From sequence record NC_018855.1: 64,000 bases of DNA; one strand, written 5' to 3'. This document shows, in pieces, positions 73 through 29,439 of this stretch. The stretch is from Escherichia phage HX01. How positions within the stretch are numbered: the first letter of the stretch is position 1; each line of letters begins with the position of its first letter. Below the pieces are notes generated by a model that did no database searches, was not told the DNA's origin, and saw nothing but the letters and a program-made list of their open reading frames with translations. Position numbers and translations under genes: made by a program.

Positions 73-149
<77 letters not shown>

Positions 150-1515: not shown

Positions 1516-1518
1516 AGA

Positions 1519-1538: not shown

Positions 1539-1567
1539 TAGGGGGTCTATAACTTACTGAAAAAGTT

Positions 1568-1600
1568 GTTTACTTCTTCCCTAGATGTGTTACTATAGAC
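1568..1600 (+). promoter_or_regulatory. T4-type early promoter (GTTTAC -35, TAnTAT -10)
   Basis: GTTTAC at 1568-1573, 17-nt spacer, TGTGTTACTATAGACC. Confidence 0.55.
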
Positions 1601-1624
1601 CTATAAAAACATGAGGAAAATGTT

Positions 1625-1930: not shown

Positions 1931-1997
1931 AATAATGATGTACAAGCACCAAGGATGGTGATACTATAGACTTATCAACTACAGTGGAGTAAACAAA

Positions 1998-2162
1998 ATG
2001 ACTACTTTAATTATTTGGTTTGACGAAAATGAAGAAACATACTGTGTGAACATTGGCGAAAGCCCAATGCCTGAATTTGAATCCTCAGATAAAAACTCTG
2101 TTGTATCTTGGGCTGAAGGTTATAAAGCCGCTAAAGGTGACGTTGAAATAATTTACATCTAA
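1998..2162 (+). CDS. hypothetical small protein (54 aa)
   Basis: ATG after SD GGAG; below 60-aa track cutoff; read manually. Confidence 0.4.
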   Translation: MTTLIIWFDENEETYCVNIGESPMPEFESSDKNSVVSWAEGYKAAKGDVEIIYI

Positions 2163-2208
2163 GTAAGTTTATGTTATAGTAATCACATCAAATCAAGAGG
2201 AAAACAAA

Positions 2209-2436
2209 ATGGCTAAAGTTAGTATTGATGTCGTTGATTATGAATACACCGAAGAAGTTATTCGCAACCGTCACCCTGAAGTTCGTATCGATTCAGTCCA
2301 AGATTCCAAGTTCTGGACAACTGAGCTTAATCTAAGTGGTCCTTATGAAGCTGTTAAGAAGTTCATGGTTGAAGAATACTGTGAAGGCATGCACCCAGAA
2401 GACGCCGAGTTTTATGTCAATTTGATTAAAAAATAA
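2209..2436 (+). CDS. hypothetical protein
   Basis: 75-aa ORF, SD AGAGGAAAA. Confidence 0.55.
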   Translation: MAKVSIDVVDYEYTEEVIRNRHPEVRIDSVQDSKFWTTELNLSGPYEAVKKFMVEEYCEGMHPEDAEFYVNLIKK

Positions 2437-2465
2437 TTTACAAACTCTTGAGAGCAGAGTATAAT
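2437..2465 (+). promoter_or_regulatory. early promoter (TTTACA -35, perfect TATAAT -10)
   Basis: TTTACA 2437-2442, 17-nt spacer, TATAAT 2460-2465; -10 flanked by inverted repeat GAGAGC/GCTCTC. Confidence 0.55.
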
Positions 2466-2506
2466 GCTCTCGTTGGATAACAAACCACCAATTGAAAGGT
2501 AATAAT

Positions 2507-3100
2507 ATGAACACACTGAAGAAACTTGTTGAATTCATCCGCACTAAACTGGGTACTGCTATGGCTAAAAATCTGACTGTAGAAGAACAGTATAACGCAG
2601 CTGCAGATAAGTTGATTACCCAAATCAAAGAACTAAAAACGGCTTCTGTTAAATCTATTAATGAAGAAAAACGTATTCGCGAACTTGTTAATGAAAAGAA
2701 CAAGCAAGCCGCTTCTAAGGAACGTGAAATTCGTAAGCTCCTGGCTGAAGGACAAGATGTTACCATGCATGCTAAGCTTGGTCTTCTGTATCGTCGAACG
2801 GCTGAACAACTTAATACAAAAGCTGACGGGTATGCCGCTATGCGAATTGAAATTGCTCGTAAGGTGGTTGAACTTGACGATGCTCGTCAGAACCTGGCAA
2901 TCAAACTCGAATACATTCGTGAAACTCGAGCAGCCAATGCCCTTGGTATCTCTACGGCTGATGATGTAATTGAAATCGCTGCACTAACTAAGGTTGATAT
3001 TGAAGACACTCTGACTCGTGTTGAAACGTTCAATGGCACTCCAACCGGTGTCGAAACCACTTCTGCTGATGTACAAGAATATATTAACTCTTTGAAATAA
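2507..3100 (+). CDS. hypothetical protein
   Basis: ORF track 2492..3100; first ATG at 2507. Confidence 0.6.
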
Positions 3101-3108
3101 AATAATAC

Positions 3109-3130
3109 GGAGGACTCCGGTCCTCCTTTT
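3109..3130 (+). terminator. rho-independent terminator
   Basis: GGAGGAC-TCCG-GTCCTCC then TTTT. Confidence 0.65.
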
Positions 3131-3149
3131 GGATAATAAAGGAGTTAAC

Positions 3150-3746
3150 ATGCGAAACCAAAATAATGATATTGACTCAATGTTCGAAGAGTTCCGAAAT
3201 AAGGTAAATCCACCTACGTCTTTAGTTGATTCATTACGATATGTTGCAACTGGACGTAAATGGTATTGGTCGTCTTCTTATGAGACAACTGAATATGCAA
3301 ATAACCGAAAATCTTTATTAGCCCCAGGTATTATGATTCATGATATCGGAGCTATTGCTAAACTAGTTGCAGACCATGATATTAGATTCACTGATTTCGT
3401 TGCTCCTACGTGGTCTGTTTGTTGTTTAAACACTGAATGGGACTATATCAGTGAACGTTCAGATGATTACATAGGCTTTAGAGACAAGCTTTTAAGGTCT
3501 AACATGTTTTATATTGATACAGAAGTTCTGGTCAATAATAAAAAATACTACTTCACTTTAATCGTCGATTCTGAAACTATGTATGAAGGCAAGCCTTTGC
3601 TTAAAAGAGTTGATGCTTTAAGTGCTATTGATGCGCTTTATGAAACCATGGTTGTTAGTCCTAATTTCACTAACAATTTAATCCTTGAGCAATTTATTAT
3701 GGAATGTAGAGAATATGTCAAAGCCAACCCTATACATGCCAAGTAA
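3150..3746 (+). CDS. hypothetical protein containing the EQFIMECR motif
   Basis: ORF track 3129..3746; ATG 3150 after SD AAAGGAG. Confidence 0.6.
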   Translation: MRNQNNDIDSMFEEFRNKVNPPTSLVDSLRYVATGRKWYWSSSYETTEYANNRKSLLAPGIMIHDIGAIAKLVADHDIRFTDFVAPTWSVCCLNTEWDYISERSDDYIGFRDKLLRSNMFYIDTEVLVNNKKYYFTLIVDSETMYEGKPLLKRVDALSAIDALYETMVVSPNFTNNLILEQFIMECREYVKANPIHAK

Positions 3747-4110
3747 GCCCTGGGCGTATGAATACAAGCGTAAATTAATCCCAAATGAAGTACTATTTGG
3801 CCCTATTTTAGCTTTAGCATTTTTAATCTTTATGATTATAGGAGCTGTTTTAGATTCCAATAAAGTTATATCGTCTGATGCAGCGTTTTCATTAATGTTC
3901 GTCGCACCACTTATTGTACCGTTTTTATTAATGCCTATTAATTGGGCAGGATATTGGCACCAAGGCCGTCATCACAGAGCCCGATTAAGAGAATGGAAAG
4001 TTCAGTGCGCAAAAGCCCAAGCTCAGTATGATGAAGCTGTTAAAAAGTATGAATATGAAGAAGCTATGGAATTCGTTAAGGAAATAAGATGCAAAAACCT
4101 CAACTCTTAA
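3715..4110 (+). CDS. small membrane protein, C-terminal EFVKEIRCKN tail
   Basis: ORF track 3685..4110; first ATG 3715; hydrophobic segments. Confidence 0.5.
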   Translation: MSKPTLYMPSKPWAYEYKRKLIPNEVLFGPILALAFLIFMIIGAVLDSNKVISSDAAFSLMFVAPLIVPFLLMPINWAGYWHQGRHHRARLREWKVQCAKAQAQYDEAVKKYEYEEAMEFVKEIRCKNLNS

Positions 4111-4451
4111 CCGTATGGCCTTCTCTTGGTGAGAACATTCTAATTTTTATTATGAGTATTGGCATGGGATTTGCCTTTGGATTAGTTGGATTTCTTATTG
4201 ACGGCGTTGTGTTAGGATTTATAGGGAACACTGGTGGATTCACAGACCAATGGCAGGACTTACGGTATACCCAAGCCTTTGCATCCATCGCATCATTTTG
4301 TACTGTAGTCTATTTTTACTACGATTTTATAAACCATAACAAGAAAAATAAAAAGGTTTACGCTTCTCAAATGATTAGTTATAATGAACTCCTAGCTAGA
4401 CGTGAAAATGAAACAATAGAAAACTTTATTAAGGAATGTAGAAATGAGTAA
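4089..4451 (+). CDS. small membrane protein, C-terminal ENFIKECRNE tail
   Basis: 120 aa, SD AAGGA, hydrophobic N-terminal half. Confidence 0.6.
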   Translation: MQKPQLLTVWPSLGENILIFIMSIGMGFAFGLVGFLIDGVVLGFIGNTGGFTDQWQDLRYTQAFASIASFCTVVYFYYDFINHNKKNKKVYASQMISYNELLARRENETIENFIKECRNE

Positions 4452-4749
4452 GATTATTGAAATTAAAGTACCAGAGTTTAATGATGCCAAATCCGCTTCA
4501 GATGCAATTTATAAACTTCTGAATCAAGCTGAACGTATCGAAGAAGAAGCAACAAAGATCGCAGACCAATATGCCGTATCATTTTCTGTAGGTGATTATG
4601 GTAGCGGTCGTACTTATTATCCTAAGGGTGAAATCGTATCCCAGTGGATGAAAGATGAAATTGAAAATAATGGTGGCGATGTTAAGCGTGAAGGTAATGG
4701 TTACGTTATTACTGAAGGTGCTTGGGTTTCGTCTTCTGCGTTGTGCTAA
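4444..4749 (+). CDS. hypothetical protein, paralog family ending W-V-SSSALC
   Basis: 101 aa; first of three tandem paralogs. Confidence 0.6.
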   Translation: MSKIIEIKVPEFNDAKSASDAIYKLLNQAERIEEEATKIADQYAVSFSVGDYGSGRTYYPKGEIVSQWMKDEIENNGGDVKREGNGYVITEGAWVSSSALC

Positions 4750-4758
4750 GGAATCATT

Positions 4759-5031
4759 ATGTCTAAAGAACAAACCGAACTGGCTGAAGCTGTAGCAAAA
4801 ATCTATGCAGCTATTGAGGCTGCCAAAGAAATTGCTGATAAACAAAACACAACATTCGACTTGTATCCAGCTTATGGTATGGGTGGAACATATCATTCAC
4901 CCGGACAGCTTAAAGCCGATCTTGAACGTTGTACAAAAAACGGCTATGCTGAATGGGCTGACGTTTACCAATACGACTACAACCTGAGCCTCGAAACTGG
5001 TGGTTGGATCGCATCTTCTCACACTTGCTAA
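4759..5031 (+). CDS. hypothetical protein, paralog family ending W-I-ASSHTC
   Basis: 90 aa. Confidence 0.6.
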   Translation: MSKEQTELAEAVAKIYAAIEAAKEIADKQNTTFDLYPAYGMGGTYHSPGQLKADLERCTKNGYAEWADVYQYDYNLSLETGGWIASSHTC

Positions 5032-5040
5032 GGAAACCAT

Positions 5041-5238
5041 ATGTCTCGTGAATTAGATTGTGCTGTACGTACGGCAGTAGCTGCCCTGGAAAACCTGTTC
5101 CAAATTGCAACAGAAGAACGCGAAGAAGTTACATTGTGGATTGAAGATAACGCAGGTCTGAATCTCCAGAACGCGATCTCATTATCCCACAATAGTATCA
5201 CTGTTCAAGGCTGGGTATCATCTAGTTATTCTTGCTAA
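5041..5238 (+). CDS. hypothetical protein, paralog family ending W-V-SSSYSC
   Basis: 65 aa. Confidence 0.55.
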   Translation: MSRELDCAVRTAVAALENLFQIATEEREEVTLWIEDNAGLNLQNAISLSHNSITVQGWVSSSYSC

Positions 5239-5242
5239 AACA

Positions 5243-5272
5243 GTTTACAACAAGATAGGGCTATGTTATAGT
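5243..5272 (+). promoter_or_regulatory. early promoter with inverted repeat around -10
   Basis: GTTTAC 5243-5248; GATAGGGCTA / TAGTCCTATC inverted repeat. Confidence 0.5.
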
Positions 5273-5300
5273 AGTCCTATCAAATTAAATGGAGTCCACA

Positions 5301-5540
5301 ATGATTTATTACGAAAGTATTGGAACCGAAGTGGTTGCTAAAACCATTACTCGTGAAAAGTTTGCAAAGATATTCGATATGCGTTATAAAAAATCTGAAC
5401 ACAAAGGCATCCGATTCGAAGATGCACACTGTACAATTTGCCCTTATAACGAAGACATAAATGGTACAATCGTTCCATTGGTAGAGGCTTCACACGATGA
5501 CCTCTGGGATGAATATGATATCGCATGTCGTGAAATTTAA
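5301..5540 (+). CDS. hypothetical protein
   Basis: ORF track 5289..5540; ATG 5301 after SD GGAG. Confidence 0.5.
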   Translation: MIYYESIGTEVVAKTITREKFAKIFDMRYKKSEHKGIRFEDAHCTICPYNEDINGTIVPLVEASHDDLWDEYDIACREI

Positions 5541-5568
5541 GTTAATGAATTAATCCGAGGAAAATATT

Positions 5569-6525
5569 ATGATGTTAGTTATTGGTTCTCGTGCACTTCA
5601 CTATCACGGTCTTATTGATTCTAACGCTATCAAAAATAGTGACTGGGACTTTATTGCAGACCAAGGTTCTTGGAATGCATTCAAAAATCAAATGATGGGT
5701 GTATATGTTCACCAAGATAACCCTGATGTCCAAGTTTTCAAATGCTTCCATAATGGACGCGAAACTCATTTTGAAGCATATATTGTTCCGGCAATCACTA
5801 ATGTCCGTGAATTAGTAGGTGAACTCACTCCTGAAGATTTCACGTCTTCTTATGACCTTTTAAAATACGCCAAGAAAAATTTGACTAAAGACCGTTTGAA
5901 CGGGTTTTACTGGGCAACTCCTGAGATATGTCTTGCAATTAAGATGTCTCATCGTTTCAAGAAAAATAATCCATTCTTTTTAAAGACTATGAACCATATT
6001 CAGTATCTTCGTGGTAAAGGTGTTACACTGAACGATGAACTTACTGAAATTATGCTAAAACGCCAGAAAGAAACCTTGAACTATGCTCACCCAGTTCTTG
6101 ACACTTCTAAAAGTGCGTTCTTTAAAGATGACATCTATACATATGACCATGATACTATTCATGAAGCCATTGCACTAACAGACCGTCCAGCGTATACATT
6201 TTATATGAAAGACGGTTCTGAAGTCATGACATCACGCGAGAAGTTCGAATCATTACCAGAAATGGTCAAATTGGCCGGTGTATACGAAGAATCATGTGTA
6301 CTAGCATTAGAACGTTCTCAAATTCCTAATGACTTTAAAATTAACCCTGAAGCCAGTTTTATGATGGCATTAGAAAAAGTATGTACAAGCATCACCTCCG
6401 GTTGGTTCCGTGAGTATGCCTGGGAAAACTACAGCAAAGTAGTAAGTATGTACCAAAGCTTAGGACATGATGATTACGTCAAACGTTTCAAACAAAATTT
6501 CCATATGGTAAAACCTTTCAAATAA
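5569..6525 (+). CDS. predicted nucleotidyltransferase-fold protein
   Basis: 318 aa; N-terminal IGSRALHYHGLIDSNAIKNSDWDF resembles the GS...DxD motif of Pol-beta-type NTases; unverified. Confidence 0.6.
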   Translation: MMLVIGSRALHYHGLIDSNAIKNSDWDFIADQGSWNAFKNQMMGVYVHQDNPDVQVFKCFHNGRETHFEAYIVPAITNVRELVGELTPEDFTSSYDLLKYAKKNLTKDRLNGFYWATPEICLAIKMSHRFKKNNPFFLKTMNHIQYLRGKGVTLNDELTEIMLKRQKETLNYAHPVLDTSKSAFFKDDIYTYDHDTIHEAIALTDRPAYTFYMKDGSEVMTSREKFESLPEMVKLAGVYEESCVLALERSQIPNDFKINPEASFMMALEKVCTSITSGWFREYAWENYSKVVSMYQSLGHDDYVKRFKQNFHMVKPFK

Positions 6526-6537
6526 CTTCACAAAACT

Positions 6538-6567
6538 GTTTACACAATTATAGGGCTATATTATAGT
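6538..6567 (+). promoter_or_regulatory. early promoter
   Basis: GTTTAC 6538-6543; near copy of the 5243 promoter. Confidence 0.5.
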
Positions 6568-6595
6568 AGTCCTATTAAAACATGAGGAGAATATT

Positions 6596-6901
6596 ATGAA
6601 ATTAACAGAAACCAACCGAATTGGTCTTTTAACAATATTTGCATCACCTTTTTACGCAGCCCTTTCTGTTGCAGTATTACAAAAGGCTTACGATATGGAT
6701 GGTGTTCCTGGTTTTGTATTCTTATCACCGTTTTTATTATTCGTCGGAGCATTGTTATTATATGCCACGACTAGTTTCGACCATAATGTCTGGGTCAATT
6801 ATAAATGTAAATTGTCTGAAGAAGAACACGCAGAAGCTCGTAAAAAAGCTATTGAATCTACCAATCTAGAAAATTTCATTAAAGAATGTCGAGGAAAATA
6901 A
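6596..6901 (+). CDS. small membrane protein, C-terminal ENFIKECRGK tail
   Basis: 101 aa, SD GAGGAG. Confidence 0.6.
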   Translation: MKLTETNRIGLLTIFASPFYAALSVAVLQKAYDMDGVPGFVFLSPFLLFVGALLLYATTSFDHNVWVNYKCKLSEEEHAEARKKAIESTNLENFIKECRGK

Positions 6902-6902
6902 T

Positions 6903-7589
6903 ATGAATAGTTCTAAAGTGTTTAATAGTCAAGCTCGTGCAGTAGGTGGTTTCGCTGGTAAAATTTCTAACGATAAAATCAAAAACGAACCTATGTTCTT
7001 CAACAGCTCGTTAGCCTTCGCTTTTGATAATGGTGGCCCTATTACTCGCAGCTTCATCATGAACCTACCAGATGATTGGAACACCGACCAGGTTGTATTT
7101 GATTCACGAGTCCACATGCTGATGCCTGGTTGGTATCCTGCTATTCCTGGATATCACCATGATGACGTACCACGCCCTGATATTCCAGTTGGTCAACACT
7201 TTATTACTGCAGGACAACCTGATTATGACAATCCTCGCTATTTGTCTGAACATATTCTTGGTCTTGTTAACGCTGATGTGTGTCCTACTCATTTTGCAAC
7301 AGGAACTGCAGAGTTCAGTCAGATTCCTGATGGCGAACTTATCTATCGTCAGTGGCACAAAGAAGTCCTCGAAAAAATTGAAAAAGGTGAACTAGAGAAA
7401 TGGGAAGCTCCAGATCGTACTCTTCTTCAGTTTGATTGGCAAACATGGCACACTGGTTCTCGTGCAATTAGTAACGGATGGCGTTGGTTCGGACGTGTAT
7501 CTCGTAATACAGACCGAGTTAAAAAGATTACCAATGAAATTCGTGTCAATGCTCAAGTTTATCTGGAATTCCCTATGGAAGGCTGGTAA
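6903..7589 (+). CDS. hypothetical protein
   Basis: 228-aa ORF, translationally coupled. Confidence 0.6.
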   Translation: MNSSKVFNSQARAVGGFAGKISNDKIKNEPMFFNSSLAFAFDNGGPITRSFIMNLPDDWNTDQVVFDSRVHMLMPGWYPAIPGYHHDDVPRPDIPVGQHFITAGQPDYDNPRYLSEHILGLVNADVCPTHFATGTAEFSQIPDGELIYRQWHKEVLEKIEKGELEKWEAPDRTLLQFDWQTWHTGSRAISNGWRWFGRVSRNTDRVKKITNEIRVNAQVYLEFPMEGW

Positions 7590-8080
7590 TGATTAACAAA
7601 ACATATTGGTCTAATATAGACGATAGCAATGAAGGTATTTCATACTATTCAGTAGATTGGACAGGATGTCCATCCTACTTAGTGAAAAATATTTGCCAAG
7701 AATTTAAAATCGACCAGCCAGCAGGTATTATCGTGAACAGATACATTAATGGATATCAACCTATCGATGAAGTAATACGAACAACTCAAGCTGAGCTTGA
7801 AAGGTTTTTCAATAAGTGCCAATGGATAACAGGATGGATTATATTTGTACCATCTATATGGTTTTTCAGTACTAAGGTGAGTTCTTTCGGTTTTGTTGAT
7901 ATTATTGCTATCTTATTAGCATCTAGTATCATAAGTGTTGTTGGTGGCATCATTGGCGGCGGTACCGCCGCCATCATTATTAATCTTGTTAAAAGTAGTT
8001 TACAAGAACATAAAGACAAGATAAAAGCCAAGAATAATGAAGTTGAACGTTTTATTACCGAATGCAGGAATTTGAGATGA
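7589..8080 (+). CDS. membrane protein with glycine-zipper TM segment, C-terminal ERFITECRNLR
   Basis: 163 aa; VVGGIIGGGTAAIII. Confidence 0.6.
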   Translation: MINKTYWSNIDDSNEGISYYSVDWTGCPSYLVKNICQEFKIDQPAGIIVNRYINGYQPIDEVIRTTQAELERFFNKCQWITGWIIFVPSIWFFSTKVSSFGFVDIIAILLASSIISVVGGIIGGGTAAIIINLVKSSLQEHKDKIKAKNNEVERFITECRNLR

Positions 8081-8313
8081 GTATAGCAATTTACATTAAA
8101 TCAGAATCATGTGATTCTTATCTGTATTCCTATGATACCGGAACGTCAGAAGAGAAAATCAAAGAAGATTTAGAAAGCGACTTGGATATGTTCCGACCTA
8201 TTTCTGATTATATGGTCCAAATATCTGATAGTGAAAGTCCGTCAACAGAAACATGTGTTGAAATTATTATACGAGATATCTTTAAACAATCATGGGACCG
8301 AGATGATGAGTAA
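8077..8313 (+). CDS. hypothetical acidic protein
   Basis: ORF track 8062..8313; ATGA overlap start at 8077. Confidence 0.5.
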   Translation: MSIAIYIKSESCDSYLYSYDTGTSEEKIKEDLESDLDMFRPISDYMVQISDSESPSTETCVEIIIRDIFKQSWDRDDE

Positions 8314-8761
8314 GAAAAATAAAGTGAAAGAACTATCAGCCGGTATTATTTTCCTTACCGAAGATAAAGAATTATTCATGGGGCGTGTAACTGGTTCTCG
8401 TCCTAAAGGTTCTTTAGCTCATCGGTGGGATATTCCTAAAGGTCGTGTCGAGCCCGGTGAATCTCCTATCGAAGCCGCTATTCGTGAATGCGAAGAAGAA
8501 ACTGGGTTTACACAATATGACCCTGCCTTCCTGAAAGACCTAGGTGAACATCATTACTCAGACAATAAGAATATTCACCTGTTCCTATATACCATCCCTG
8601 TAGAGCACGAGCAATTCAGAAATAGTGTTTGTAATTCCTATCATACATTCCCAGACGGACGTCAGATTCCTGAATTTGATGCATTCGCTTTAATTAAACC
8701 TTCTCAATGGGAATATGTAATGGGCAAATCATTATATAAGGTGCTCACTACCCTCCTATAA
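8303..8761 (+). CDS. nudE: Nudix hydrolase (T4 NudE / e.1-like)
   Basis: Nudix box GRVEPGESPIEAAIRECEEETG; lies just upstream of lysozyme as in T4; start trimmed to ATG 8303. Confidence 0.8.
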   Translation: MMSKKNKVKELSAGIIFLTEDKELFMGRVTGSRPKGSLAHRWDIPKGRVEPGESPIEAAIRECEEETGFTQYDPAFLKDLGEHHYSDNKNIHLFLYTIPVEHEQFRNSVCNSYHTFPDGRQIPEFDAFALIKPSQWEYVMGKSLYKVLTTLL

Positions 8762-8795
8762 GTAATAAATACCTCCTATAAACGTGGGAGGTATT
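8757..8795 (+). promoter_or_regulatory. late-promoter-like element plus hairpin covering the lysozyme ribosome-binding site
   Basis: AATAAATA 8764-8771 (one mismatch to TATAAATA); 9-bp inverted repeat AATACCTCC 8768-8776 / GGAGGTATT 8787-8795. Confidence 0.5.
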
Positions 8796-9284
8796 ATGAA
8801 TATATTTGAAATGCTTCGTAATGACGAAGGTCTTAGACTGACTTTATACAAAGACACTGAAGGCTTTTGGACGATTGGCATAGGCCATTTAGTAACAAAG
8901 AACCCATCTTTAGCCGTAGCTAAAGCTGAACTTGACAGAATGATCGGCCGTAAATGCAACGGTACAATTACCCTTGATGAGGCTGAAAAGCTATTTAATG
9001 AAGACGTTGATAAAGCCGTTCGCGGAATCTTGGGTAATGCTAAACTTAAACCGGTATACGATTCTTTAGATGCGGTTCGTCGTTGTGCATTGGTCAATAT
9101 GGTCTTCCAAATGGGTGTAGCAGGCGTCGCCGGTTTTACTAATTCTCTTCGTATGCTTCAACAGAAACGTTGGGACGAAGCGGCAGTAAATCTAGCCCAA
9201 TCTAAATGGTATCGTCAGACACCCAATCGCGCGAAACGCGTAATATCAACATTTAAAACAGGAACTTGGAAAGCGTATATATGA
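8796..9284 (+). CDS. e: lysozyme (endolysin), T4 e homolog
   Basis: MNIFEMLR...DEAEKLF...[41 protein letters not shown] matches T4 lysozyme from memory. Confidence 0.95.
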
Positions 9285-9549
9285 AAACATATAGTGAATT
9301 TTTATCAGAATCTATTCTTAACGAAGCTACTGACACATTTGCAACTAAGTTAGGTGCAGCTTTGGTTGAAGCCGAAAGTCTATTAGCACGTATTTTAAGA
9401 TAGATACTCGCAAATTTGAACGTACCAGTGATATCGTTAAGCTTGAAGCCTTGTTGCGTATGTGTGATAAACCGGAAGAAATCGCTAAGAACGGCTCGCT
9501 GATGAAACAACGTCTTGAAAAATATATTTCAGGCGCTTCAGAAAAATAG
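9281..9549 (+). pseudogene. frame-disrupted internal-protein-like gene
   Basis: ATG 9281 (ATGA overlap with e) encodes [10 protein letters not shown]... for 40 codons to TAG 9401-9403; coding-like sequence continues in the +2 frame to TAG 9547-9549. Confidence 0.45.
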
Positions 9550-9550
9550 T

Positions 9551-9605
9551 GTTTACTTCCTCCAAGGGTTTTGATACTATACATTCATCAACTACTTGGA
9601 GGAAA
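9551..9605 (+). promoter_or_regulatory. early promoter with inverted repeat covering the denV ribosome-binding site
   Basis: GTTTAC 9551-9556; perfect 10-bp inverted repeat TTCCTCCAAG 9557-9566 / CTTGGAGGAA 9595-9604. Confidence 0.55.
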
Positions 9606-9607
9606 TT

Positions 9608-10021
9608 ATGACTCGTATCAATTTAACACTTGTTTCTGAACTGACCGACCAACATCTTATGGCTGAGTATCGTGAATTACCACGCGTATTTGGTGCAGTC
9701 CGTAAACATGTTCAAAACGGTAAACGTGTAAAGGATTTTAAAATCTCCCCGACATTTATCTTAGGCACAGGTCATGTAACATTCTTTTACGACAAACTCG
9801 AATTTTTACGTTTACGTCAAATCGAGCTAATCGCTGAATGCTTGAAACGTGGTTTCAAAATCAAGGACACGACTGTCCAAGATATTTCCGACATCCCTGC
9901 CGAATTTCGTAATAATTATGTCCCGACCGAAGCGTCCATTGCGATAAGTCAAGCTCGTTTAGATGAAAAAATTGCTCAACGTCCTACTTGGTACAAATAC
10001 TATGGTAAATCAATTTACTAA
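9608..10021 (+). CDS. denV: endonuclease V, pyrimidine-dimer DNA glycosylase
   Basis: [34 protein letters not shown]... matches T4 DenV from memory; ORF track start trimmed. Confidence 0.93.
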
Positions 10022-10112
10022 GGAAAAAGGTTGCGATGGTAAAGCTTAAACAGTTTACGCTTAAGTATTAATATGGTATAATTACTCTATCAAAACAAAC
10101 AAGGAAACAAAA

Positions 10113-10415
10113 ATGAAAACATATCAAGAATTTATTACTGAAGCGCGAGTGAGTGCAGGTAAATTAGAAGCCGCTATAAATAAAAAGGCCCATTCATTTC
10201 ACGATTTGTCCGATAAAGACCGTAAGAAACTTGTAAGCCTTTATATTGACAAAGAGCGTATTCTCGCTCTTCCTGGCGCTAATGAAGGTAAACAGGCCAA
10301 GCCTTTGAATGCTGTTGAAAAGAAAATTGATAACTTTGCTTCTAAATTCGGTATGTCTATGGATGACCTTCAGCAAGCGGCTATCGAAGCAGCTAAAGTA
10401 ATTAAAGGTAAATAA
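10113..10415 (+). CDS. ipII: internal protein II-like
   Basis: 100 aa, N-terminus MKTYQEFITEARVSA (capsid-targeting-like). Confidence 0.65.
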   Translation: MKTYQEFITEARVSAGKLEAAINKKAHSFHDLSDKDRKKLVSLYIDKERILALPGANEGKQAKPLNAVEKKIDNFASKFGMSMDDLQQAAIEAAKVIKGK

Positions 10416-10417
10416 CA

Positions 10418-10450
10418 GTTTACTTTCTCCTAGAATTGTGATAGTATAAT
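10418..10450 (+). promoter_or_regulatory. early promoter
   Basis: GTTTAC 10418-10423, TATAAT 10445-10450. Confidence 0.45.
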
Positions 10451-10472
10451 CATAATTACTTGGAGAGGTAAA

Positions 10473-10546
10473 ATGACTCGATGAAAAAATTTTAATGAAG
10501 CCACACTGGTATAAGTATTAAGGCAAAAATATTTACATTCAAATAA
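10473..10546 (+). pseudogene. remnant of a denV-like gene (start fused to 3' end)
   Basis: ATG-ACT-CGA (MTR, as denV start) then TGA; following sequence reads DEKILMKPHWYKY*GKNIY, paralleling the denV C-terminus [19 protein letters not shown]. Confidence 0.4.
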
Positions 10547-10687
10547 CATGGGAACAAGCTGGACCTCATGATTCTATGAGGGATTCCCGCCAACCTGTAA
10601 TAAGGTCGAGTCCAAGTGCGGTAATGGGTAAATACAGAAATGGACAATTCATGTGCCATGGAATGGCCCAAACTTAGAGAGAACAAA

Positions 10688-11227
10688 ATGAAAACATTTT
10701 TAACTGGACCTTATCTATCCCTGATGAATGCTTTTACACACCATTCTGATGCTAGAGTAGAAGAAATTTGTAAGAACGGTTATGTCCCACCATTTGAAGA
10801 CATACTCAAGCAGTACTGTACACTTCGTTTAGACGGTGGCAGACAATCAGGTAAATCCACTGCAGTAACTAATTTTGCTGCTAATTGGCTGCACGACGAT
10901 GGAACAGTTATTGTTCTTTCTAATACTTCAGCTTATGCTAAAATTTCTGCTGGCAACATTAAAAAAGAATTTTCTCGTTATTCTAGCGACGATATTCGAT
11001 TCCGTTTATTTACTGATTCTGTCCGTAGTTTTATTGGCAATGAAGGTTCTAAATTCCGTGGATTAACGCTTTCTCGTATTCTGTATATAATTGACGAGCC
11101 TATTAAAGCTCCTGATATGGATAAGATTTACAACATACATATTAAAACAGTCCAACACTGTTGCAAAAGCAAATATTGCATCAGTGGTATTGCTCGTCCT
11201 CAATTTTTTGTGATTGGAATGCAATGA
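10688..11227 (+). CDS. P-loop protein (Walker A GGRQSGKST), function unknown
   Basis: ORF track 10640..11227; ATG 10688 after SD AGAGAGAA. Confidence 0.55.
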   Translation: MKTFLTGPYLSLMNAFTHHSDARVEEICKNGYVPPFEDILKQYCTLRLDGGRQSGKSTAVTNFAANWLHDDGTVIVLSNTSAYAKISAGNIKKEFSRYSSDDIRFRLFTDSVRSFIGNEGSKFRGLTLSRILYIIDEPIKAPDMDKIYNIHIKTVQHCCKSKYCISGIARPQFFVIGMQ

Positions 11228-11532
11228 TGACCACTATTGAAGTTTTTGAGTATTGTTATAACAGCCCAGTATGCAATAAAAGGGCTCTTGTAGAAAATTA
11301 TGAGATTTACCATTTTAAACCTAAACGATACCGTTTGACTAAAGGTCCGTTCGCAGGGCAGCAGGTTCTTTGTACTGCTCCTAATGCACGGTTGATGACT
11401 AGTATTCCGCATTTCAAAATGGAATTTATTGATGGGCCATTTAAAGGATTAATCACTCAAAGTTTAATGGCGTTTAATTCCGACCCATTTTTGATTAAAG
11501 AAAAAACTTGGATAAATTTATTTTCTAATTGA
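11224..11532 (+). CDS. hypothetical protein
   Basis: ORF track 11161..11532; ATGA-coupled start 11224. Confidence 0.5.
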   Translation: MMTTIEVFEYCYNSPVCNKRALVENYEIYHFKPKRYRLTKGPFAGQQVLCTAPNARLMTSIPHFKMEFIDGPFKGLITQSLMAFNSDPFLIKEKTWINLFSN

Positions 11533-11538
11533 GGTTAT

Positions 11539-11901
11539 ATGAAAGCATATCAAATTCTTGAAGGTGTACATAAAGGCACTATTTATTTTGAAGACGGTAC
11601 TCAAGCCCGGATTATCGTCTCTAAGACTTTTAAAGAAGACGCTATTGTAGACCCGGAAATTTTCTACGGTTTGAATGCCCGTGAAATTGAAATTGAACAT
11701 CAACCTAAAGTTAAAATTGAAGGTGGTCAACACCTGAACGTTAACGTTCTGCGTCGTGAAACTCTGGAAGATGCAGTTAAGCATCCGGAAAAATATCCGC
11801 AGCTGACCATCCGTGTATCCGGTTATGCAGTTCGCTTTAACTCTCTGACTCCGGAACAGCAGCGCGACGTTATCGCTCGGACATTTACCGAGAGTCTATA
11901 A
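11539..11901 (+). CDS. grcA: autonomous glycyl-radical cofactor (GrcA/YfiD-like)
   Basis: C-terminal [63 protein letters not shown] with glycyl-radical signature RVSGY; a T4 YfiD homolog (Y06I) is known. Confidence 0.85.
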
Positions 11902-12125
11902 TGGCTAAATTGATTATAGAAGGGTCTGAAGATGTTTTAAAATGTTTTGCCGCCTGGTTTAGTTGCTCAGGCGAGCAATCATTCATTGAAGCATTTAGAA
12001 CGGGTGATATTACTGGAAAATATCCGTCAACCGATATCACTGTACGCGGATATGGTATTAATGAGCCTATCCAATTGGTCGAATATGACCTTGCCACCGA
12101 TGAGGAAATTCCTTATGTCGATTGA
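11901..12125 (+). CDS. hypothetical protein
   Basis: 74-aa ORF, ATGA-coupled. Confidence 0.5.
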   Translation: MAKLIIEGSEDVLKCFAAWFSCSGEQSFIEAFRTGDITGKYPSTDITVRGYGINEPIQLVEYDLATDEEIPYVD

Positions 12126-12360
12126 AGACATCAAAGGCTACAAGCCGCATACCGATGATAAAATCGGTAAAGTGAACGCTATTAAAGATGCCGAAGTTCG
12201 TTTAGGACTTATTCTGGACGCCCTGGCAGAAGAAGCATTATCAGAAAATACTCCTGAAGCTCTGACGGCTTTGTCCCAACTTAACTGTGCTAAAGAGCGT
12301 CTAAAGGAAGCTAGTATGTGGGCGTGTCGTGCGGTATTTCGACCTGAGGAAAAATACTAA
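12115..12360 (+). CDS. hypothetical protein
   Basis: ORF track 11947..12360; start set to ATG 12115 after SD GAGG. Confidence 0.45.
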
Positions 12361-12659
12361 TGGCTCAAATCCTATCAGGCTTTGGAACTCATTATGAAGC
12401 ATCTCGACGCATAACTGAAAGCAATCCTTTTGGCCTTGTTCCGAAGCACAAGAAAATTCAAAGCCTTGATGACTTTGAGAATCGCCTATGGGCCCTCTTT
12501 AATGAGTACAAGGCATATCTGAAAGAAGACGCTGACGATTGTCTTGAAGAAGATGAGATTGCGTATTATGAACAACGCCTTGAACAGCTCAAGAACTTCC
12601 ACCAGGTTCGTGACGAAGTATCTAAAGCAGTTAAAAAGTTAATTCCTTTCAAAGAGTAG
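12360..12659 (+). CDS. hypothetical protein
   Basis: 99-aa ORF. Confidence 0.55.
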
Positions 12660-12708
12660 TTTACTTCTCCTCTAGTTGTGTTACTATAGACCTGTCAACT
12701 AGAGGAGA
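12659..12708 (+). promoter_or_regulatory. early promoter with inverted repeat covering the regB ribosome-binding site
   Basis: GTTTAC 12659-12664; perfect 13-bp inverted repeat TCTCCTCTAGTTG 12666-12678 / CAACTAGAGGAGA 12696-12708. Confidence 0.6.
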
Positions 12709-12715
12709 AATCAAA

Positions 12716-13174
12716 ATGACTATCAATTCAGACGTTTTTATCCGCCGTAATAAACTCCGTCGAATCTTTGAAACGGAGTTCCGCAAAATAAATGCCAGTA
12801 TAAAAGATGCTGCAAAGTCTCTTGGACTACCAGGCTTTCATATCAAGTATTCTCAACATCTCTTAGATCGTGCCATCCAGAGAGAAATAGATGAGAACTA
12901 CGTTTTTGAATTATTTCGTAAAGTAAAAAATCATGTTAAAGAAGTTGCAGAATTTTTATCAATGCCGGCACGTCCAGATGTTGATGAAGATTTTGTCGAA
13001 GGTGTTGAATATCGCCCAGGCCGTTTAGAAATAACTGACGGAAATCTTTGGTTAGGACTTACAGTTTGTCGCGAAAATCCTGCATTCAAAATGAAGACTC
13101 TTCAATGCAGAATGGCTATTATTAACAGTAAACGACTACCAGGAAAAGCTTCTAAAGCAGTGATTAAAATCTAG
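12716..13174 (+). CDS. regB: RegB site-specific endoribonuclease
   Basis: MTINSDVFIRRNKLRR...KYSQHLLDRAIQREIDE...CRMAIINSKRLPGKASKAVIK matches T4 RegB from memory. Confidence 0.9.
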   Translation: MTINSDVFIRRNKLRRIFETEFRKINASIKDAAKSLGLPGFHIKYSQHLLDRAIQREIDENYVFELFRKVKNHVKEVAEFLSMPARPDVDEDFVEGVEYRPGRLEITDGNLWLGLTVCRENPAFKMKTLQCRMAIINSKRLPGKASKAVIKI

Positions 13175-13182
13175 AGGTAAAC

Positions 13183-13725
13183 ATGAGAAAAGCACTACTC
13201 GCTGGTCTATTTGCTCTTTCATTATCAGCACATAGCTCCGAGCATACTTTTAGTAATGTCCAACTCGATAACTTGAATTATGCTTATCAGTTTGGGGAAC
13301 AGTTTTCTAAGGACGGAAAATTTAAAACGCATGAAAATATGCATAAGAAAGGACTTGGATACATAATGGCCGCAATACTATGGCAGGAATCATCTGCCGG
13401 TATTAATCTTAAAGATAAGAAAGGTCACCATGCGTATGGAATGTTCCAAAACTATCTACCAACAATGAGGGCAAGAGTTAACCAGCTTGGTTATAATATG
13501 ACTGATGCCCAAATTAAGAAAATGCTATCTAAGCGGTCTAATTCAGCAAGATGGGCTTATATCGAATTTTCTTATTGGTTAAATATACATAACGGGGATA
13601 TAAGGAAAGCCTTATCCTCATATAATGCGGGATGGAAGACAAGTGCTGGAAGTAAATATGCTTCTGAAGTCCTAGAAAAGGCCAATTACCTTAAATCAAA
13701 TAAACTACTGGAAATAAAAGAATGA
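13183..13725 (+). CDS. secreted lytic transglycosylase-like protein
   Basis: Signal peptide; WQESS and SYNAGW motifs resembling SLT domain. Confidence 0.6.
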   Translation: MRKALLAGLFALSLSAHSSEHTFSNVQLDNLNYAYQFGEQFSKDGKFKTHENMHKKGLGYIMAAILWQESSAGINLKDKKGHHAYGMFQNYLPTMRARVNQLGYNMTDAQIKKMLSKRSNSARWAYIEFSYWLNIHNGDIRKALSSYNAGWKTSAGSKYASEVLEKANYLKSNKLLEIKE

Positions 13726-14069
13726 CCAAAATGTTGGCTTTAATAGTTGGCTTGGTTTCATTTAACGCTCTTGCTAATACTACATATACTGATGTAACGG
13801 AGTATACAAACAGAACGGCGTCTGATTATTGTGGTAAAAGTCAAGAGTGTAAAGTAGATTTTTCACAAAAATTGTTATATGCGTATAAAGACGGAGAAAA
13901 AGATGGGGCGTCTAGTAGGTTCAAGGCGTCTACCTTAATTAAAAGATACTATAAAAAATGGCAAATATTAGAATGCTCGGTGGCGGAACCTAAAGATAAG
14001 GCAGCATGCAATTCTATGGTGGACCGTCTAGTTGACTCTTATAATAGAGGACTTGCAGCAAGTGATTAA
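13722..14069 (+). CDS. small secreted protein (T4 vs position, 115 aa)
   Basis: Signal-peptide-like N-terminus; assignment by position and length only. Confidence 0.5.
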   Translation: MTKMLALIVGLVSFNALANTTYTDVTEYTNRTASDYCGKSQECKVDFSQKLLYAYKDGEKDGASSRFKASTLIKRYYKKWQILECSVAEPKDKAACNSMVDRLVDSYNRGLAASD

Positions 14070-14529
14070 AAACTATATCAAGGGCGATATTGTCGCCCTG
14101 TTTTCTAAAGGTAATAATATTGCTCATGGGTGCAATTGTTTTCATACAATGGGCGCCGGTGTAGCAGGTCAATTAGCAAAGGCTTATCCAAAAATTTTAG
14201 AAGCCGATAAACTTCAAACCGAATTCGGAGACGAGTCTAAACTTGGGACTTATTCGGTTTATGAAAAATATTTTAAGACCCATAAAGCTTATTGCTTTAA
14301 TCTTTATACACAGTTTGAGCCGGGACCTAATTTTGAGTACTCTGCTTTAATGAATTGTATAATAGAATTAAATGAATTCGGAAAAAATAAGATAACAAAG
14401 CCTGTAATTTATATGCCAAGAATTGGTGCGGGTATTGGTGGCGGAAACTGGGATGTCATCGAAGAGATTTTAGATACGTATTCCACTAAACTAGAAATTG
14501 TGATTGTTGATTGGGAACCATTATTATGA
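14062..14529 (+). CDS. macro-domain protein (ADP-ribose binding/processing family)
   Basis: GDIVALFSKGNNIAHGCNCFHTMGAGVAGQLAKAYP resembles macro-domain N-terminal motifs; no in-frame ATG, GTG 14062 assumed. Confidence 0.55.
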   Translation: MIKNYIKGDIVALFSKGNNIAHGCNCFHTMGAGVAGQLAKAYPKILEADKLQTEFGDESKLGTYSVYEKYFKTHKAYCFNLYTQFEPGPNFEYSALMNCIIELNEFGKNKITKPVIYMPRIGAGIGGGNWDVIEEILDTYSTKLEIVIVDWEPLL

Positions 14530-26684: not shown

Positions 26685-27158
26685 ATGTTATTGACTGGCA
26701 AATTATATAAAGAAGAAAAACAGAAATTTTATAATGCACAAAACGGTAAATGCTTAATTTGCCAACGAGAACTAAATCCTGATGTTCAAGCTAATCACCT
26801 TGACCATGACCATGAATTAAATGGACCAAAAGCAGGAAAGGTGCGTGGATTGCTCTGTAATCTTTGCAATGCTGCGGAAGGTCAAATGAAGCACAAATTT
26901 AATCGTTCTGGCTTAAAGGGACAAGGTGTTGATTATCTTGAATGGTTGGAAAATTTACTTACTTATTTAAAATCCGATTACACCCAAAATAATATTCACC
27001 CTAACTTCGTTGGAGATAAATCAAAGGAATTTTCTCGTTTAGGAAAAGAGGAAATGATGGCTGAGATGCTTCAAAGAGGATTTGAATATAATGAATCTGA
27101 CACTAAAACACAATTAATAGCTTCATTTAAGAAGCAGCTTAGAAAGAGTTTAAAATGA
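26685..27158 (+). CDS. 49: endonuclease VII (Holliday junction resolvase)
   Basis: 157 aa; MLLTGKLYKEEKQKFY..CLICQREL..HLDHDHELNG..LLCNLCNAAEG matches T4 gp49. Confidence 0.95.
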   Translation: MLLTGKLYKEEKQKFYNAQNGKCLICQRELNPDVQANHLDHDHELNGPKAGKVRGLLCNLCNAAEGQMKHKFNRSGLKGQGVDYLEWLENLLTYLKSDYTQNNIHPNFVGDKSKEFSRLGKEEMMAEMLQRGFEYNESDTKTQLIASFKKQLRKSLK

Positions 27159-28972
27159 CAATTGAAAAAGAAATTGAAGGATTGATTCATAAAACTAATA
27201 AAGACCTTTTGAACGAGAATGCTAATAAAGATTCTCGTGTTTTTCCAACTCAACGGGACCTTATGGCTGGTATTGTGTCTAAGCACATTGCCAAAAATAT
27301 GGTCCCGTCTTTTATTATGAAAGCACATGAAAGCGGAATTATCCATTTCCATGATATTGATTATTCCCCTGCTCTTCCATTTACTAATTGCTGTTTAGTA
27401 GATTTAAAAGGAATGCTTGAAAACGGGTTTAAGCTAGGTAATGCTCAAATTGAAACGCCTAAATCGATTGGTGTTGCTACTGCAATTATGGCACAAATTA
27501 CCGCACAGGTTGCTTCACATCAGTACGGCGGAACGACTTTTGCTAATGTAGATAAAGTACTTTCTCCTTATGTTAAACGCACCTATGCAAAACATATTGA
27601 GGATGCAGAAAAATGGCAAATCGCTGATGCGTTGAATTATGCCCAATCTAAAACAGAAAAAGACGTATACGATGCATTTCAAGCTTATGAGTATGAAGTA
27701 AATACTCTTTTTAGCTCAAACGGTCAAACGCCTTTTGTAACAATTACATTTGGTACTGGAACTGACTGGACTGAACGAATTATTCAGAAAGCAATTCTTA
27801 AAAACCGCATTAAAGGCCTTGGTCGTGATGGAATAACTCCTATTTTCCCTAAACTTGTTATGTTCATTGAAGAGGGTGTCAATCTTTATAAAGACGACCC
27901 GAACTATGATATTAAGCAGCTTGCTCTAGAGTGTGCAAGCAAAAGAATGTATCCTGATATTATTTCAGTTAAGAACAATAAAGCTATCACTGGTTCATCT
28001 ATTCCTGTTTCTCCAATGGGTTGTCGTAGTTTCTTGAGTGTATGGAAAGATTCGACTGGAAATGAAATTCTTGATGGACGTAATAATCTTGGTGTTGTAA
28101 CACTGAATCTTCCTCGTATTGCGTTAGATTCTTATATTGGAACACAATTCAATGAACAGAAATTTGTTGAGCTATTTAATGAACGAATGGATCTGTGTTT
28201 TGAAGCCTTGATGTGTAGAATTAGTTCTTTAAAGGGTGTTAAAGCAACTGTTGCTCCTATTCTTTACCAAGAAGGTGCATTCGGGGTTCGTCTTAAACCT
28301 GATGACGATATAATTGAGTTATTTAAAAACGGTAGAAGTTCAGTGTCCCTAGGATACATTGGTATTCACGAATTGAATATTCTTGTCGGACGTGATATTG
28401 GACAGGAAATTTTGACTAAAATGAATGCTCGTCTTAAGCAGTGGACTGAAAGAACCGGTTTTGCTTTTAGCTTGTATTCTACTCCTGCTGAAAACCTGTG
28501 CTATCGCTTCTGTAAACTTGATACAGAAAAATATGGAAGTGTAAAGGATGTTACTGATAAAGGCTGGTACACTAACAGTTTCCATGTTTCAGTAGAAGAA
28601 AATATCACTCCGTTTGAAAAGATTTCTCGCGAAGCCCCATATCATTTCATTGCGACAGGTGGTCACATTTCTTATGTTGAACTTCCTGATATGAAAAATA
28701 ACCTAAAAGGTCTTGAGGCTGTATGGGATTATGCTGCACAGCATTTAGATTATTTTGGTGTTAATATGCCAGTAGATAAATGTTTTACATGTGGAAGTAC
28801 CCATGAAATGACTCCTACTGAAAACGGATTTGTTTGTTCTATTTGTGGAGAAACTGATCCTAAAAAGATGAACACCATAAGAAGAACATGCGGTTATCTT
28901 GGAAATCCGAACGAACGCGGATTTAATCTCGGCAAAAATAAAGAAATCATGCATAGGGTTAAACACCAATGA
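27155..28972 (+). CDS. nrdD: anaerobic ribonucleoside-triphosphate reductase
   Basis: 605 aa, C-terminal Cys cluster and glycyl-radical region; matches T4 NrdD size and position. Confidence 0.93.
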   Translation: MTIEKEIEGLIHKTNKDLLNENANKDSRVFPTQRDLMAGIVSKHIAKNMVPSFIMKAHESGIIHFHDIDYSPALPFTNCCLVDLKGMLENGFKLGNAQIETPKSIGVATAIMAQITAQVASHQYGGTTFANVDKVLSPYVKRTYAKHIEDAEKWQIADALNYAQSKTEKDVYDAFQAYEYEVNTLFSSNGQTPFVTITFGTGTDWTERIIQKAILKNRIKGLGRDGITPIFPKLVMFIEEGVNLYKDDPNYDIKQLALECASKRMYPDIISVKNNKAITGSSIPVSPMGCRSFLSVWKDSTGNEILDGRNNLGVVTLNLPRIALDSYIGTQFNEQKFVELFNERMDLCFEALMCRISSLKGVKATVAPILYQEGAFGVRLKPDDDIIELFKNGRSSVSLGYIGIHELNILVGRDIGQEILTKMNARLKQWTERTGFAFSLYSTPAENLCYRFCKLDTEKYGSVKDVTDKGWYTNSFHVSVEENITPFEKISREAPYHFIATGGHISYVELPDMKNNLKGLEAVWDYAAQHLDYFGVNMPVDKCFTCGSTHEMTPTENGFVCSICGETDPKKMNTIRRTCGYLGNPNERGFNLGKNKEIMHRVKHQ

Positions 28973-29439
28973 ATTATGATAGATTTTATCCTTGCGATTT
29001 TGTGAATGGCCCTGGTTGCAGGGTCGTTCTTTTCGTTACAGGTTGTTTGCATAAATGCGAAGGGTGTTATAATAAATCAACATGGAACGCTAGAAATGGT
29101 ATTCCATTCACGGGTGAAACACTGGAACAATTAATTGAATGTTTGAATAATGATTATATAGAAGGATTAACTATAACTGGAGGAGACCCTCTCTATCCTG
29201 ATAACCGAGATGTTGTTCATTGCATTGTTCAAACAGTAAAAAATCTTTATCAAAATAAAAGCATTTGGTTGTGGACAGGATATAAGTTTGAAGATATTAA
29301 ACAACTAGAAATGCTTAAATATGTTGATGTTATTATTGATGGGAAGTATGAGAAAAATCTTCCGACCAAAAAACTGTGGCGAGGATCAGATAATCAGCGA
29401 CTTTGGTCAAATACCGATGGGGTGTGGAAACATGATTAA
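28969..29439 (+). CDS. nrdG: anaerobic RNR activating enzyme (radical SAM)
   Basis: CDFVNGPGCRVVLFVTGCLHKCEGCYN; ATGA-coupled to nrdD. Confidence 0.92.
   Translation: MNYDRFYPCDFVNGPGCRVVLFVTGCLHKCEGCYNKSTWNARNGIPFTGETLEQLIECLNNDYIEGLTITGGDPLYPDNRDVVHCIVQTVKNLYQNKSIWLWTGYKFEDIKQLEMLKYVDVIIDGKYEKNLPTKKLWRGSDNQRLWSNTDGVWKHD

Follow-up and report, generated by a model that had tools for sequence, protein, structure and literature searches.

An Escherichia coli-identical block within the vs.6 glycyl-radical gene of a Mosigvirus

We analyzed a 64,000-nucleotide (nt) stretch of the genome of Escherichia phage HX01 (NC_018855.1), referred to below as the window, i.e., the whole of the DNA under study, and focused on an open reading frame (ORF) that encodes a GrcA-like glycyl-radical protein of 120 amino acids (aa) and is the ortholog of bacteriophage T4 vs.6 (protein Y06I). 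Very probably, this gene is a chimera, in which an old phage homolog of grcA had its structured half overwritten by host grcA, and its product functions as a spare part of the T4 type for pyruvate formate-lyase (PFL). The gene itself is not new: both it and its function have already been described in the literature and in RefSeq, where T4 vs.6 (NC_000866) is labeled “autonomous glycyl radical cofactor GrcA”. The lead is instead a domain-sized block of host chromosome within a gene of a lytic, T-even-type phage, with a match to the host genus in three phage genera. A full-text literature search, which returned biochemical papers only and had key older reviews outside its reach, yielded no description of such a host-genus-matched patch at the nucleotide level.

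A host-identical block in a phage gene

Across ORF nt 179–341 (window 11717–11879), 163 of 163 positions were identical to E. coli grcA, and likewise to T4 vs.6. Alignment to E. coli grcA at the nucleotide level was the check named by the original prediction for this locus, and over the last 60 codons plus the stop it returned 177 identical positions out of 183. Within codons 61–113, none of the 40 synonymous sites differed from E. coli grcA, and for this reason the identity is far more than chance or protein-level constraint would produce. Compared to other bacteria, the same patch had 2 synonymous differences in the case of a cryptic Escherichia clade, whereas Citrobacter stood at 13, Klebsiella pneumoniae at 17, and Salmonella at 24.5. 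The block (hereafter also the core) has the base composition of E. coli grcA, with a GC content of 0.503 overall and 0.434 at third codon positions (GC3), compared to 0.35 and 0.25, respectively, in the 5′ half of the ORF and to a GC content of 0.37 across the window. Since the sequence takes a normal place in the vertical series of enterobacterial grcA genes, and its composition is foreign to the phage, the transfer most likely ran from host to phage.

On the bacterial side, the core was found in all 5,426 complete E. coli genomes, with 5,161 of 5,432 matching records at ≥99% identity. It represents the majority E. coli allele, grcA nt 240 being a T in ~70% of records and a C in ~30%; at this synonymous site of the grcA coding sequence (CDS), K-12-like strains carry C, and the window and T4 carry T. 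Nucleotide similarity to grcA dropped sharply upstream of ORF nt 179, blastn alignments to E. coli started at ORF nt 133 (mean identity 90.5%), and no E. coli genome matched ≥80% of the ORF. A megablast search of window positions 1–11700, 11902–36900, and 36901–61900 against the 5,426 E. coli genomes gave no match, which leaves the patch as the sole host-like DNA of the 61.7 kb searched. In protein terms, it covers GrcA residues 67/68–121, i.e., most of the structured domain (residues 61–127) and none of the disordered half. In GenBank, the core occurs at ≥99% identity in 394 phage records and at 95–99% in a further 247 (641 at ≥95%), and below 95% there is a clean gap followed by 97 Klebsiella-phage records at 80–90% identity to the core.

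The gene that holds this block has a long phage history. The T4 and window proteins, both of 120 aa, share 94% aa identity (92.6% at the nucleotide level), and every one of their 7 aa differences lies within the first 60 residues. PHROG 1209 was matched over residues 1–120 (E = 1.5e-62), and by the N-terminal 60 aa alone (E = 1.2e-15). GrcA-like genes were detected in 1,503 phage records, with homologs in the T4-like, T5-like, and RaK2-sized jumbo phage contigs sampled (IMG/VR), and the window protein has 74–78% full-length aa identity to RB16-, RB43-, KP15-, and CC31-type contigs. Many enterobacterial genera, and RB16-type phage contigs as well, have the 60-residue C-terminal sequence of the window protein in unchanged form, and KP15-type phages encode its Klebsiella variant. 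Over the same 53 codons (~40 synonymous sites), RB16, RB43, and KP15 showed 0–1 nonsynonymous and 26–30 synonymous differences from E. coli or K. pneumoniae, i.e., saturation. The longest exact match to host grcA in the GrcA-like genes of phages outside the patch-bearing groups was ≤35 nt (81 host grcA genes compared). The same amino acids accompanied by saturated synonymous sites in RB16, RB43, and KP15 indicate an old gene and a young patch.

These comparisons divide the claim, made in the original prediction, that the gene was recently acquired from the host: it stands for the 163-nt block, identical at every position and at all 40 synonymous sites, and falls for the gene as a whole, an old T4 vs.6 ortholog with a phage-lineage 5′ half. 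The argument that had been offered for recency, i.e., aa identity to the host protein, did not survive, because the same 60 residues occur in many genera and in RB16-type phages with saturated synonymous divergence. This calls for caution: phage–host aa identity proved nothing here, and DNA comparison alone showed the recent transfer.

The age of the patch can be bracketed further by comparison to T4. The window phage is a Mosigvirus (JS09/RB69-like) and not a Tequatrovirus, a 20-kb stretch of the window being 95.8% identical to vB_EcoM-ZQ3, classified as Mosigvirus JS09; its closest vs.6 among GenBank phages has 98.6% identity. Relative to T4, the 5′ half of the gene has 88% nt identity, with 0.063 nonsynonymous (dN) and 0.449 synonymous (dS) substitutions per site and a proportion of differing synonymous sites (pS) of 0.34, and this phage-type half is under purifying selection. 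For denV, vs.8, vs.7, vs.5, vs.3, regB, vs.1, vs, and tk.4, nt identity to T4 was 67–82%, pS 0.51–0.76, and dS ~1 or saturated. Even at a pS of 0.34, the lowest of the local rates, finding 0 of 40 synonymous differences to T4 in the core has P ~6e-8 (simple binomial). Because the core lacks synonymous differences while its neighbors have strongly diverged, the patch is much younger than the split between Mosigvirus and Tequatrovirus. The region 9596–14529 also displayed local mosaicism relative to T4, with 95% identity in ipII (10113–10415) and 88% in the 5′ half of vs.6.

Every E. coli-type patch starts at one and the same point, after AAAA at ORF nt 178. At the 3′ side, the limit of E. coli identity is ORF nt 356 in T4, ~nt 353 in other Mosigviruses, and nt 341 in the window, which is set apart from all other loci compared, close relatives included, by synonymous changes at 11880, 11883, and 11889. 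There, positions 11878–11889 read CGG ACA TTT ACC in place of the CGT ACC TTT ACT of E. coli and relatives; these clustered changes may have arisen by three point mutations or mark a very short recombination tract. The last 12 nt of the gene together with the next start codon (GAGAGTCTATAATG) are common to Mosigviruses and RB16-/KP15-type phages, which suggests that the extreme 3′ end is ancestral phage sequence. In one further record, Escherichia phage vB_Eco_Some (OZ034686), vs.6 (~491–648 of the locus) carries a 79-nt tandem duplication inside the patch, with the C-terminus frameshifted after ...ARTF; either a genuine recombination event or an error of assembly could have left it.

A corresponding block was found in Klebsiella phages of the genus Jiaodavirus (KPV15, Roth20, ValerieMcCarty01, vB_Rp_M21a, and W1W2-10). 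The 5′ half of their vs.6 is orthologous to that of the window, and both boundaries of the tract are within a few nt of the window’s. Their cores matched K. pneumoniae grcA at 151–160 of 163 positions and E. coli grcA at 141–143; for KPV15, synonymous differences numbered 2 of 41 to K. pneumoniae versus 17 to E. coli. An additional Jiaodavirus-type metagenome contig reached 161/163 to K. pneumoniae. Given a Jiaodavirus core of K. pneumoniae type with equivalent boundaries, host-to-phage replacement of this block appears to have happened at least twice, from two host genera. Among Jiaodaviruses, the core was more variable (150–155/163) than the 5′ half (169–174/178). The “plasmid” records of PLSDB include whole chromosomes (CP125156, 5.37 Mb; NZ_OL790696, 4.8 Mb; and others), and these provided a K. 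pneumoniae grcA sequence for comparison. Two interrupted genes were encountered in these comparisons, KPV15 vs.6 (2324–2685 of the locus), whose GenBank record shows two CDS because of a frameshift, and the grcA of K. aerogenes NCTC10006, frameshifted in an A-run; both are probably sequencing errors.

Family membership and predicted spare-part activity

The original prediction of a GrcA/YfiD-like glycyl-radical cofactor at 11539–11901 was borne out by family and structure comparisons. The protein contains a single Pfam domain, Gly_radical (PF01228; residues 60–101, E = 1.9e-18), and aligns to NCBIfam TIGR04365 (spare_glycyl). Its best match among solved structures is the NMR structure of E. 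coli GrcA (6OWR; residues 21–120, E = 2e-42), and the C-terminus of pyruvate formate-lyase, residues 696–759 (1CM5/1H16), was matched as well (E = 3e-26). The host-identical C-terminus, whose sequence had been quoted correctly and whose length had been put beforehand at ~59 residues, proved to span 60: E61–L120 are identical (60/60) to residues 68–127 of E. coli GrcA (WP_000627804), with 65% identity over the whole protein. As in GrcA/YfiD, this is a standalone protein, i.e., a glycyl-radical domain of ~14 kDa without catalytic barrel. Its radical loop RVSGYAV (residues 92–98) is identical in alignment to both GrcA and PflB, such that the predicted radical site, Gly95, corresponds to GrcA Gly102 and to PflB Gly734, whose role in PflB has been described (PMC8683613). 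A single pairwise BLASTP of the N-terminal half against GrcA residues 1–67 gave 35% identity across 40 aa (E = 3e-6), and this half is likely homologous to the GrcA N-terminus. The PflB/TdcE model TIGR01255 was matched only at profile positions 679–744, with 89.7 bits versus a cut-off of 994; the protein is not a pyruvate formate-lyase, and those phage records that use “pyruvate formate-lyase” as a label misname it.

Validation as a spare-part protein extends to just two cases, E. coli YfiD (GrcA) and T4 Y06I (PMC8683613). According to the part of that paper which cites Wagner et al. 2001, the PFL-activating enzyme (PFL-AE) radicalizes both proteins, and both restore PFL that was cleaved by O2 at Gly734, in vitro in the case of Y06I. 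In YfiD, residues 61–127 form the structured domain that stands in for the lost PFL C-terminus, while residues 1–60 are disordered, yet important for binding of cleaved PFL and for efficient activation (PMC8683613). Because T4 Y06I differs from the window protein at 7 positions, none of them in the C-terminal 60, we infer that the latter would have the same activity.

During infection, the window protein would thus bind host PflB that oxygen has cleaved at Gly734, host PflA would place a glycyl radical on Gly95 of the phage protein, and the phage protein would substitute for the lost C-terminal radical domain of PflB. The output of acetyl-CoA and formate could then go on in a cell no longer able to make its own GrcA or PflB. 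The original prediction had placed nrdD and nrdG alongside the GrcA-like gene, and both are indeed present in the window, where nrdD is the second glycyl-radical function. Since formate is the reductant of class III ribonucleotide reductases (PMC4493059, where T4 NrdD is discussed), a PFL that is kept running may also supply formate to the phage NrdD/NrdG. In this way, vs.6 would link PFL repair to the formate supply of the phage’s anaerobic ribonucleotide reductase.

Origin of the block and competing explanations

For the chimera, the starting gene would be the old grcA homolog of phages, found throughout the sampled T4-like phages, and host chromosomal grcA would have overwritten the DNA of its C-terminal domain by homologous recombination (gene conversion). 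The donor would be E. coli for the window phage and T4, and of K. pneumoniae type for the Klebsiella Jiaodaviruses. Marker rescue and insertion/substitution vectors exploit the recombination of T-even phages with homologous DNA inside the cell, and this established laboratory practice makes a gene-conversion mechanism plausible. A further step may have followed, in which the structured half of vs.6 is repeatedly overwritten by the grcA of the current host (E. coli for Tequatrovirus and Mosigvirus, K. pneumoniae for Jiaodavirus), with the tract limited by the end of homology; we advance this repeated refreshment tentatively, as a serious possibility that stops somewhat short of being probable. 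If true, vs.6 would naturally record, in datable form, both recent host use and the recombination of the host chromosome with a phage that is strictly lytic and degrades host DNA. Were conversion ongoing, the gene would further offer a simple assay for host-to-phage recombination and a marker of recent host history.

Explanations that differ in how the block arose can be weighed on the same data. A single E. coli host-to-phage event, followed by spread between Tequatrovirus and Mosigvirus through phage–phage recombination in co-infection and without repeated refreshment, seems to us rather unlikely, even if it deserves to be taken seriously. It would account for the 5′ boundary common to all E. 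coli-type patches and for the local mosaicism (ipII 95%, 5′ half of vs.6 88%, neighbors 67–82% to T4), and the 0–6 scattered private mismatches per phage core fit decay after such an event. However, divergence falls from 12% to 0% precisely at the onset of host homology, a limit that a phage–phage tract has no reason to obey, the 3′ ends of the tracts differ (nt 356, ~353, and 341), and the Klebsiella-type patch indicates that the host-to-phage route is repeatable. The C-terminal 60 aa and 163 nt identical to E. coli grcA would also be expected if the whole gene had been captured recently from E. coli and its N-terminal half had diverged afterwards. The data contradict this, and we regard it as very improbable: the 5′ half has low nt similarity to grcA (35% aa identity over 40 aa) and a phage-like GC content of 0.35, other phage genera have kept it as well (88% nt identity to T4; 74–78% full-length aa identity for RB16-/RB43-/KP15-/CC31-type phages), no E. 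coli genome matches ≥80% of the ORF, and divergence of this size in the 5′ half would be impossible while 0 of 40 adjoining synonymous sites change. Even less credit is due to an explanation without any transfer, in which the identity would reflect extreme purifying selection on a domain that has to fit host PflA and PflB. Constraint on the protein is very strong, the 60 aa being identical in many enterobacterial genera and RB16-type phages, but it does not fix synonymous sites, and the counts there contradict this reading, with 26–30 differences for RB16, RB43, and KP15 versus 0/40 here; in addition, the patch has the GC3 of the host, and Klebsiella phages match Klebsiella, not E. coli, DNA. 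Least credible of all is an assembly artefact, i.e., host grcA reads merged into the phage contig: host DNA is present in phage lysates, and its reads could be recruited by a phage gene of such homology, but 641 independent phage records, the T4 reference and T4 GT7 among them, have the same patch and boundaries, a Klebsiella-type version occurs in Klebsiella phages, and phage-specific private substitutions lie inside the patch.

Two other readings concern what the block is for. Selection at the DNA or RNA level, through an mRNA element, host codon optimization, or homology to the host locus, might maintain the nucleotide identity, and 394 phage records do keep the 163 nt at ≥99% despite strongly diverged flanking genes. 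We consider this improbable, as no Rfam family besides tRNAs was found in the window, the E. coli-infecting RB16, RB43, and KEM-type contigs L091, L093, and L094 are without the identity, Jiaodaviruses keep a Klebsiella sequence, and 247 records have drifted to 95–99%. Only marginally better placed, and still improbable, is a role as a decoy or hijacker instead of PFL repair, by which the protein would soak up PflA, block host GrcA, or serve another glycyl-radical enzyme such as NrdD. In YfiD, recognition of cleaved PFL and the efficiency of activation depend on the N-terminal half; here, this half is replaced by a different, phage-conserved sequence under purifying selection, and the family score is under the GrcA equivalog cut-off, as a decoy would allow. 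Conversely, the patch copies grcA and not pflB or nrdD, and PFL-AE activates T4 Y06I, which has the same C-terminal domain and 7 N-terminal differences and restores function to cleaved PFL in vitro, as reported in the portion of PMC8683613 drawing on Wagner et al. 2001.

Several points nonetheless weigh against the chimera with spare-part function favored here. The TIGR04365 score, 159.1 bits over residues 18–120 (E = 6e-47), is under the curated equivalog cut-off of 170 bits (233.9 bits for E. coli GrcA), because the N-terminal half has diverged, and targeting could differ, given that this diverged half matters in YfiD for binding of cleaved PFL and for efficient activation. Function in the Mosigvirus orthologs and benefit to the phage in vivo are both inferred, and recombination with the host chromosome is likewise read from sequence. 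The tract boundaries that match in two genera are explained only by homology ending there, which is an argument. As to the donors, we considered several E. coli alleles, since one phage (L089) has the common C at grcA nt 240 plus a private change; no E. coli genome was 100% identical to the L089 core, which leaves the case for multiple alleles weak. Several donors within Jiaodavirus were considered in the same way: a degenerate-pattern metagenome scan (31 Klebsiella-type grcA alleles and one phage) gave no better bacterial donor for the diverged Jiaodavirus cores, and the scanned alleles matched Roth20 and W1W2-10 no better than K. pneumoniae did, at ≤155/163.

Genomic setting and relation to known systems

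The window and T4 have a common gene order of denV, vs.8, vs.7, vs.6, vs.5, regB, and vs.1, and vs.6 has kept its position between vs.7 and vs.5 in the denV–regB–tk block (window denV, 9596–10021; regB, 12716–13174, Pfam REGB_T4). The ORF starts with ATG, and its TAA stop and the start codon of the following ORF overlap (TAATG). An antisense ORF of 88 aa at 11518–11784 was assumed to be a by-product of the coding strand. A promoter and terminator scan of 10000–13300 gave counts no higher than in shuffled sequence. The features of the locus and of the anaerobic ribonucleotide reductase genes are listed in Table 1.

Table 1 Coordinates of vs.6, its parts, and the nrdD–nrdG genes in the window
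Feature	Position	Strand	Basis or comment
vs.6/Y06I ortholog, 120-aa GrcA-like autonomous glycyl-radical protein	11539..11901	+	ORF, Pfam, T4 alignment, PHROG 1209, 6OWR
Shine-Dalgarno GAGG, 4 nt 5′ of ATG	11531..11534	+	Direct sequence reading
Phage-lineage 5′ half	11539..11716	+	GC 0.35, GC3 0.25, 35% aa identity to GrcA N-terminus
Host-identical patch, 163 nt, equal to major E. coli grcA allele	11717..11879	+	Encodes GrcA residues 67/68–121
GGT codon, Gly95 in RVSGYAV, predicted glycyl-radical site	11821..11823	+	Alignment to GrcA and PflB C-terminus
3′ tail, 6 synonymous differences versus E. coli grcA	11880..11901	+	Nucleotide comparison
nrdD, anaerobic class III ribonucleotide reductase	27155..28972	+	Pfam NRDD (E = 5e-171), Gly_radical (E = 1.2e-25)
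nrdG, radical-SAM activase of NrdD	28969..29439	+	Pfam Fer4_12 (E = 6.5e-48) and Radical_SAM

Elsewhere in the window, a homolog of endonuclease VII (gp49) at 26685–27158 lies directly upstream of nrdD and overlaps its start. The nrdD gene is an uninterrupted ORF of 605 aa, and Rfam returned no group I intron in the 64 kb. In T4, both nrdD and td contain introns; the Mosigvirus region covered by the window appears intron-free. At gathering thresholds, tRNAs were the sole Rfam families matched in the window, i.e., a tRNA-Arg (anticodon TCT) at 73–149 and the 3′ part of another tRNA at 1–66, cut by the window edge, and positions 1–149 look like the end of a phage tRNA cluster.

Set against known systems, the window gene is closest to T4 vs.6, with which it has tight orthology, the same neighbors (denV ... 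vs.8, vs.7, vs.6, vs.5 ... regB, vs.1, tk), and a 163-nt core that is identical to E. coli and has its 5′ boundary in the same place. T4 differs in being a Tequatrovirus and in an E. coli-identical tract that is 15 nt longer, reaching ORF nt 356 instead of 341. The Jiaodavirus genes likewise have an orthologous 5′ half, the same boundaries, and a core copied, in all likelihood, from the phage’s own host genus, but with a donor of K. pneumoniae type and with cores more decayed and variable than in E. coli phages. The GrcA-like genes of RB16-, RB43-, KP15-, and CC31-type, T5-like, and RaK2-sized jumbo phages belong to the same family and have the same two-part architecture, some of them with the identical C-terminal 60 aa, whereas their synonymous sites are saturated and they are without host-identical DNA.

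Among bacterial proteins, E. coli GrcA (YfiD, 6OWR) is the same kind of small, standalone glycyl-radical domain, its residues 68–127 being identical to residues 61–120 of the phage protein, and its gene the apparent source of the 163-nt patch. The phage protein, however, has an N-terminal half that is 7 residues shorter, with 35% identity across 40 aa, and its gene sits among closely spaced neighbors of the same strand in a denV–tk block common with T4. The C-terminal domain of PflB (residues 693–759) has a homologous fold and radical motif, but the phage protein lacks the catalytic barrel (PflB comprises ~760 aa) and the Cys418/Cys419 active site, and the DNA of the patch is of grcA type, pflB being ~80% identical over it. 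A broader parallel is provided by psbA and psbD of cyanophages, lytic phages in which patches of host-derived metabolic genes are exchanged within the gene between host and phage copies. There, as in vs.6, a lytic phage carries a host-derived metabolic gene with patches exchanged between copies; gene, hosts, and phage families are different, and the tract in vs.6 is a single, domain-sized, host-identical block.

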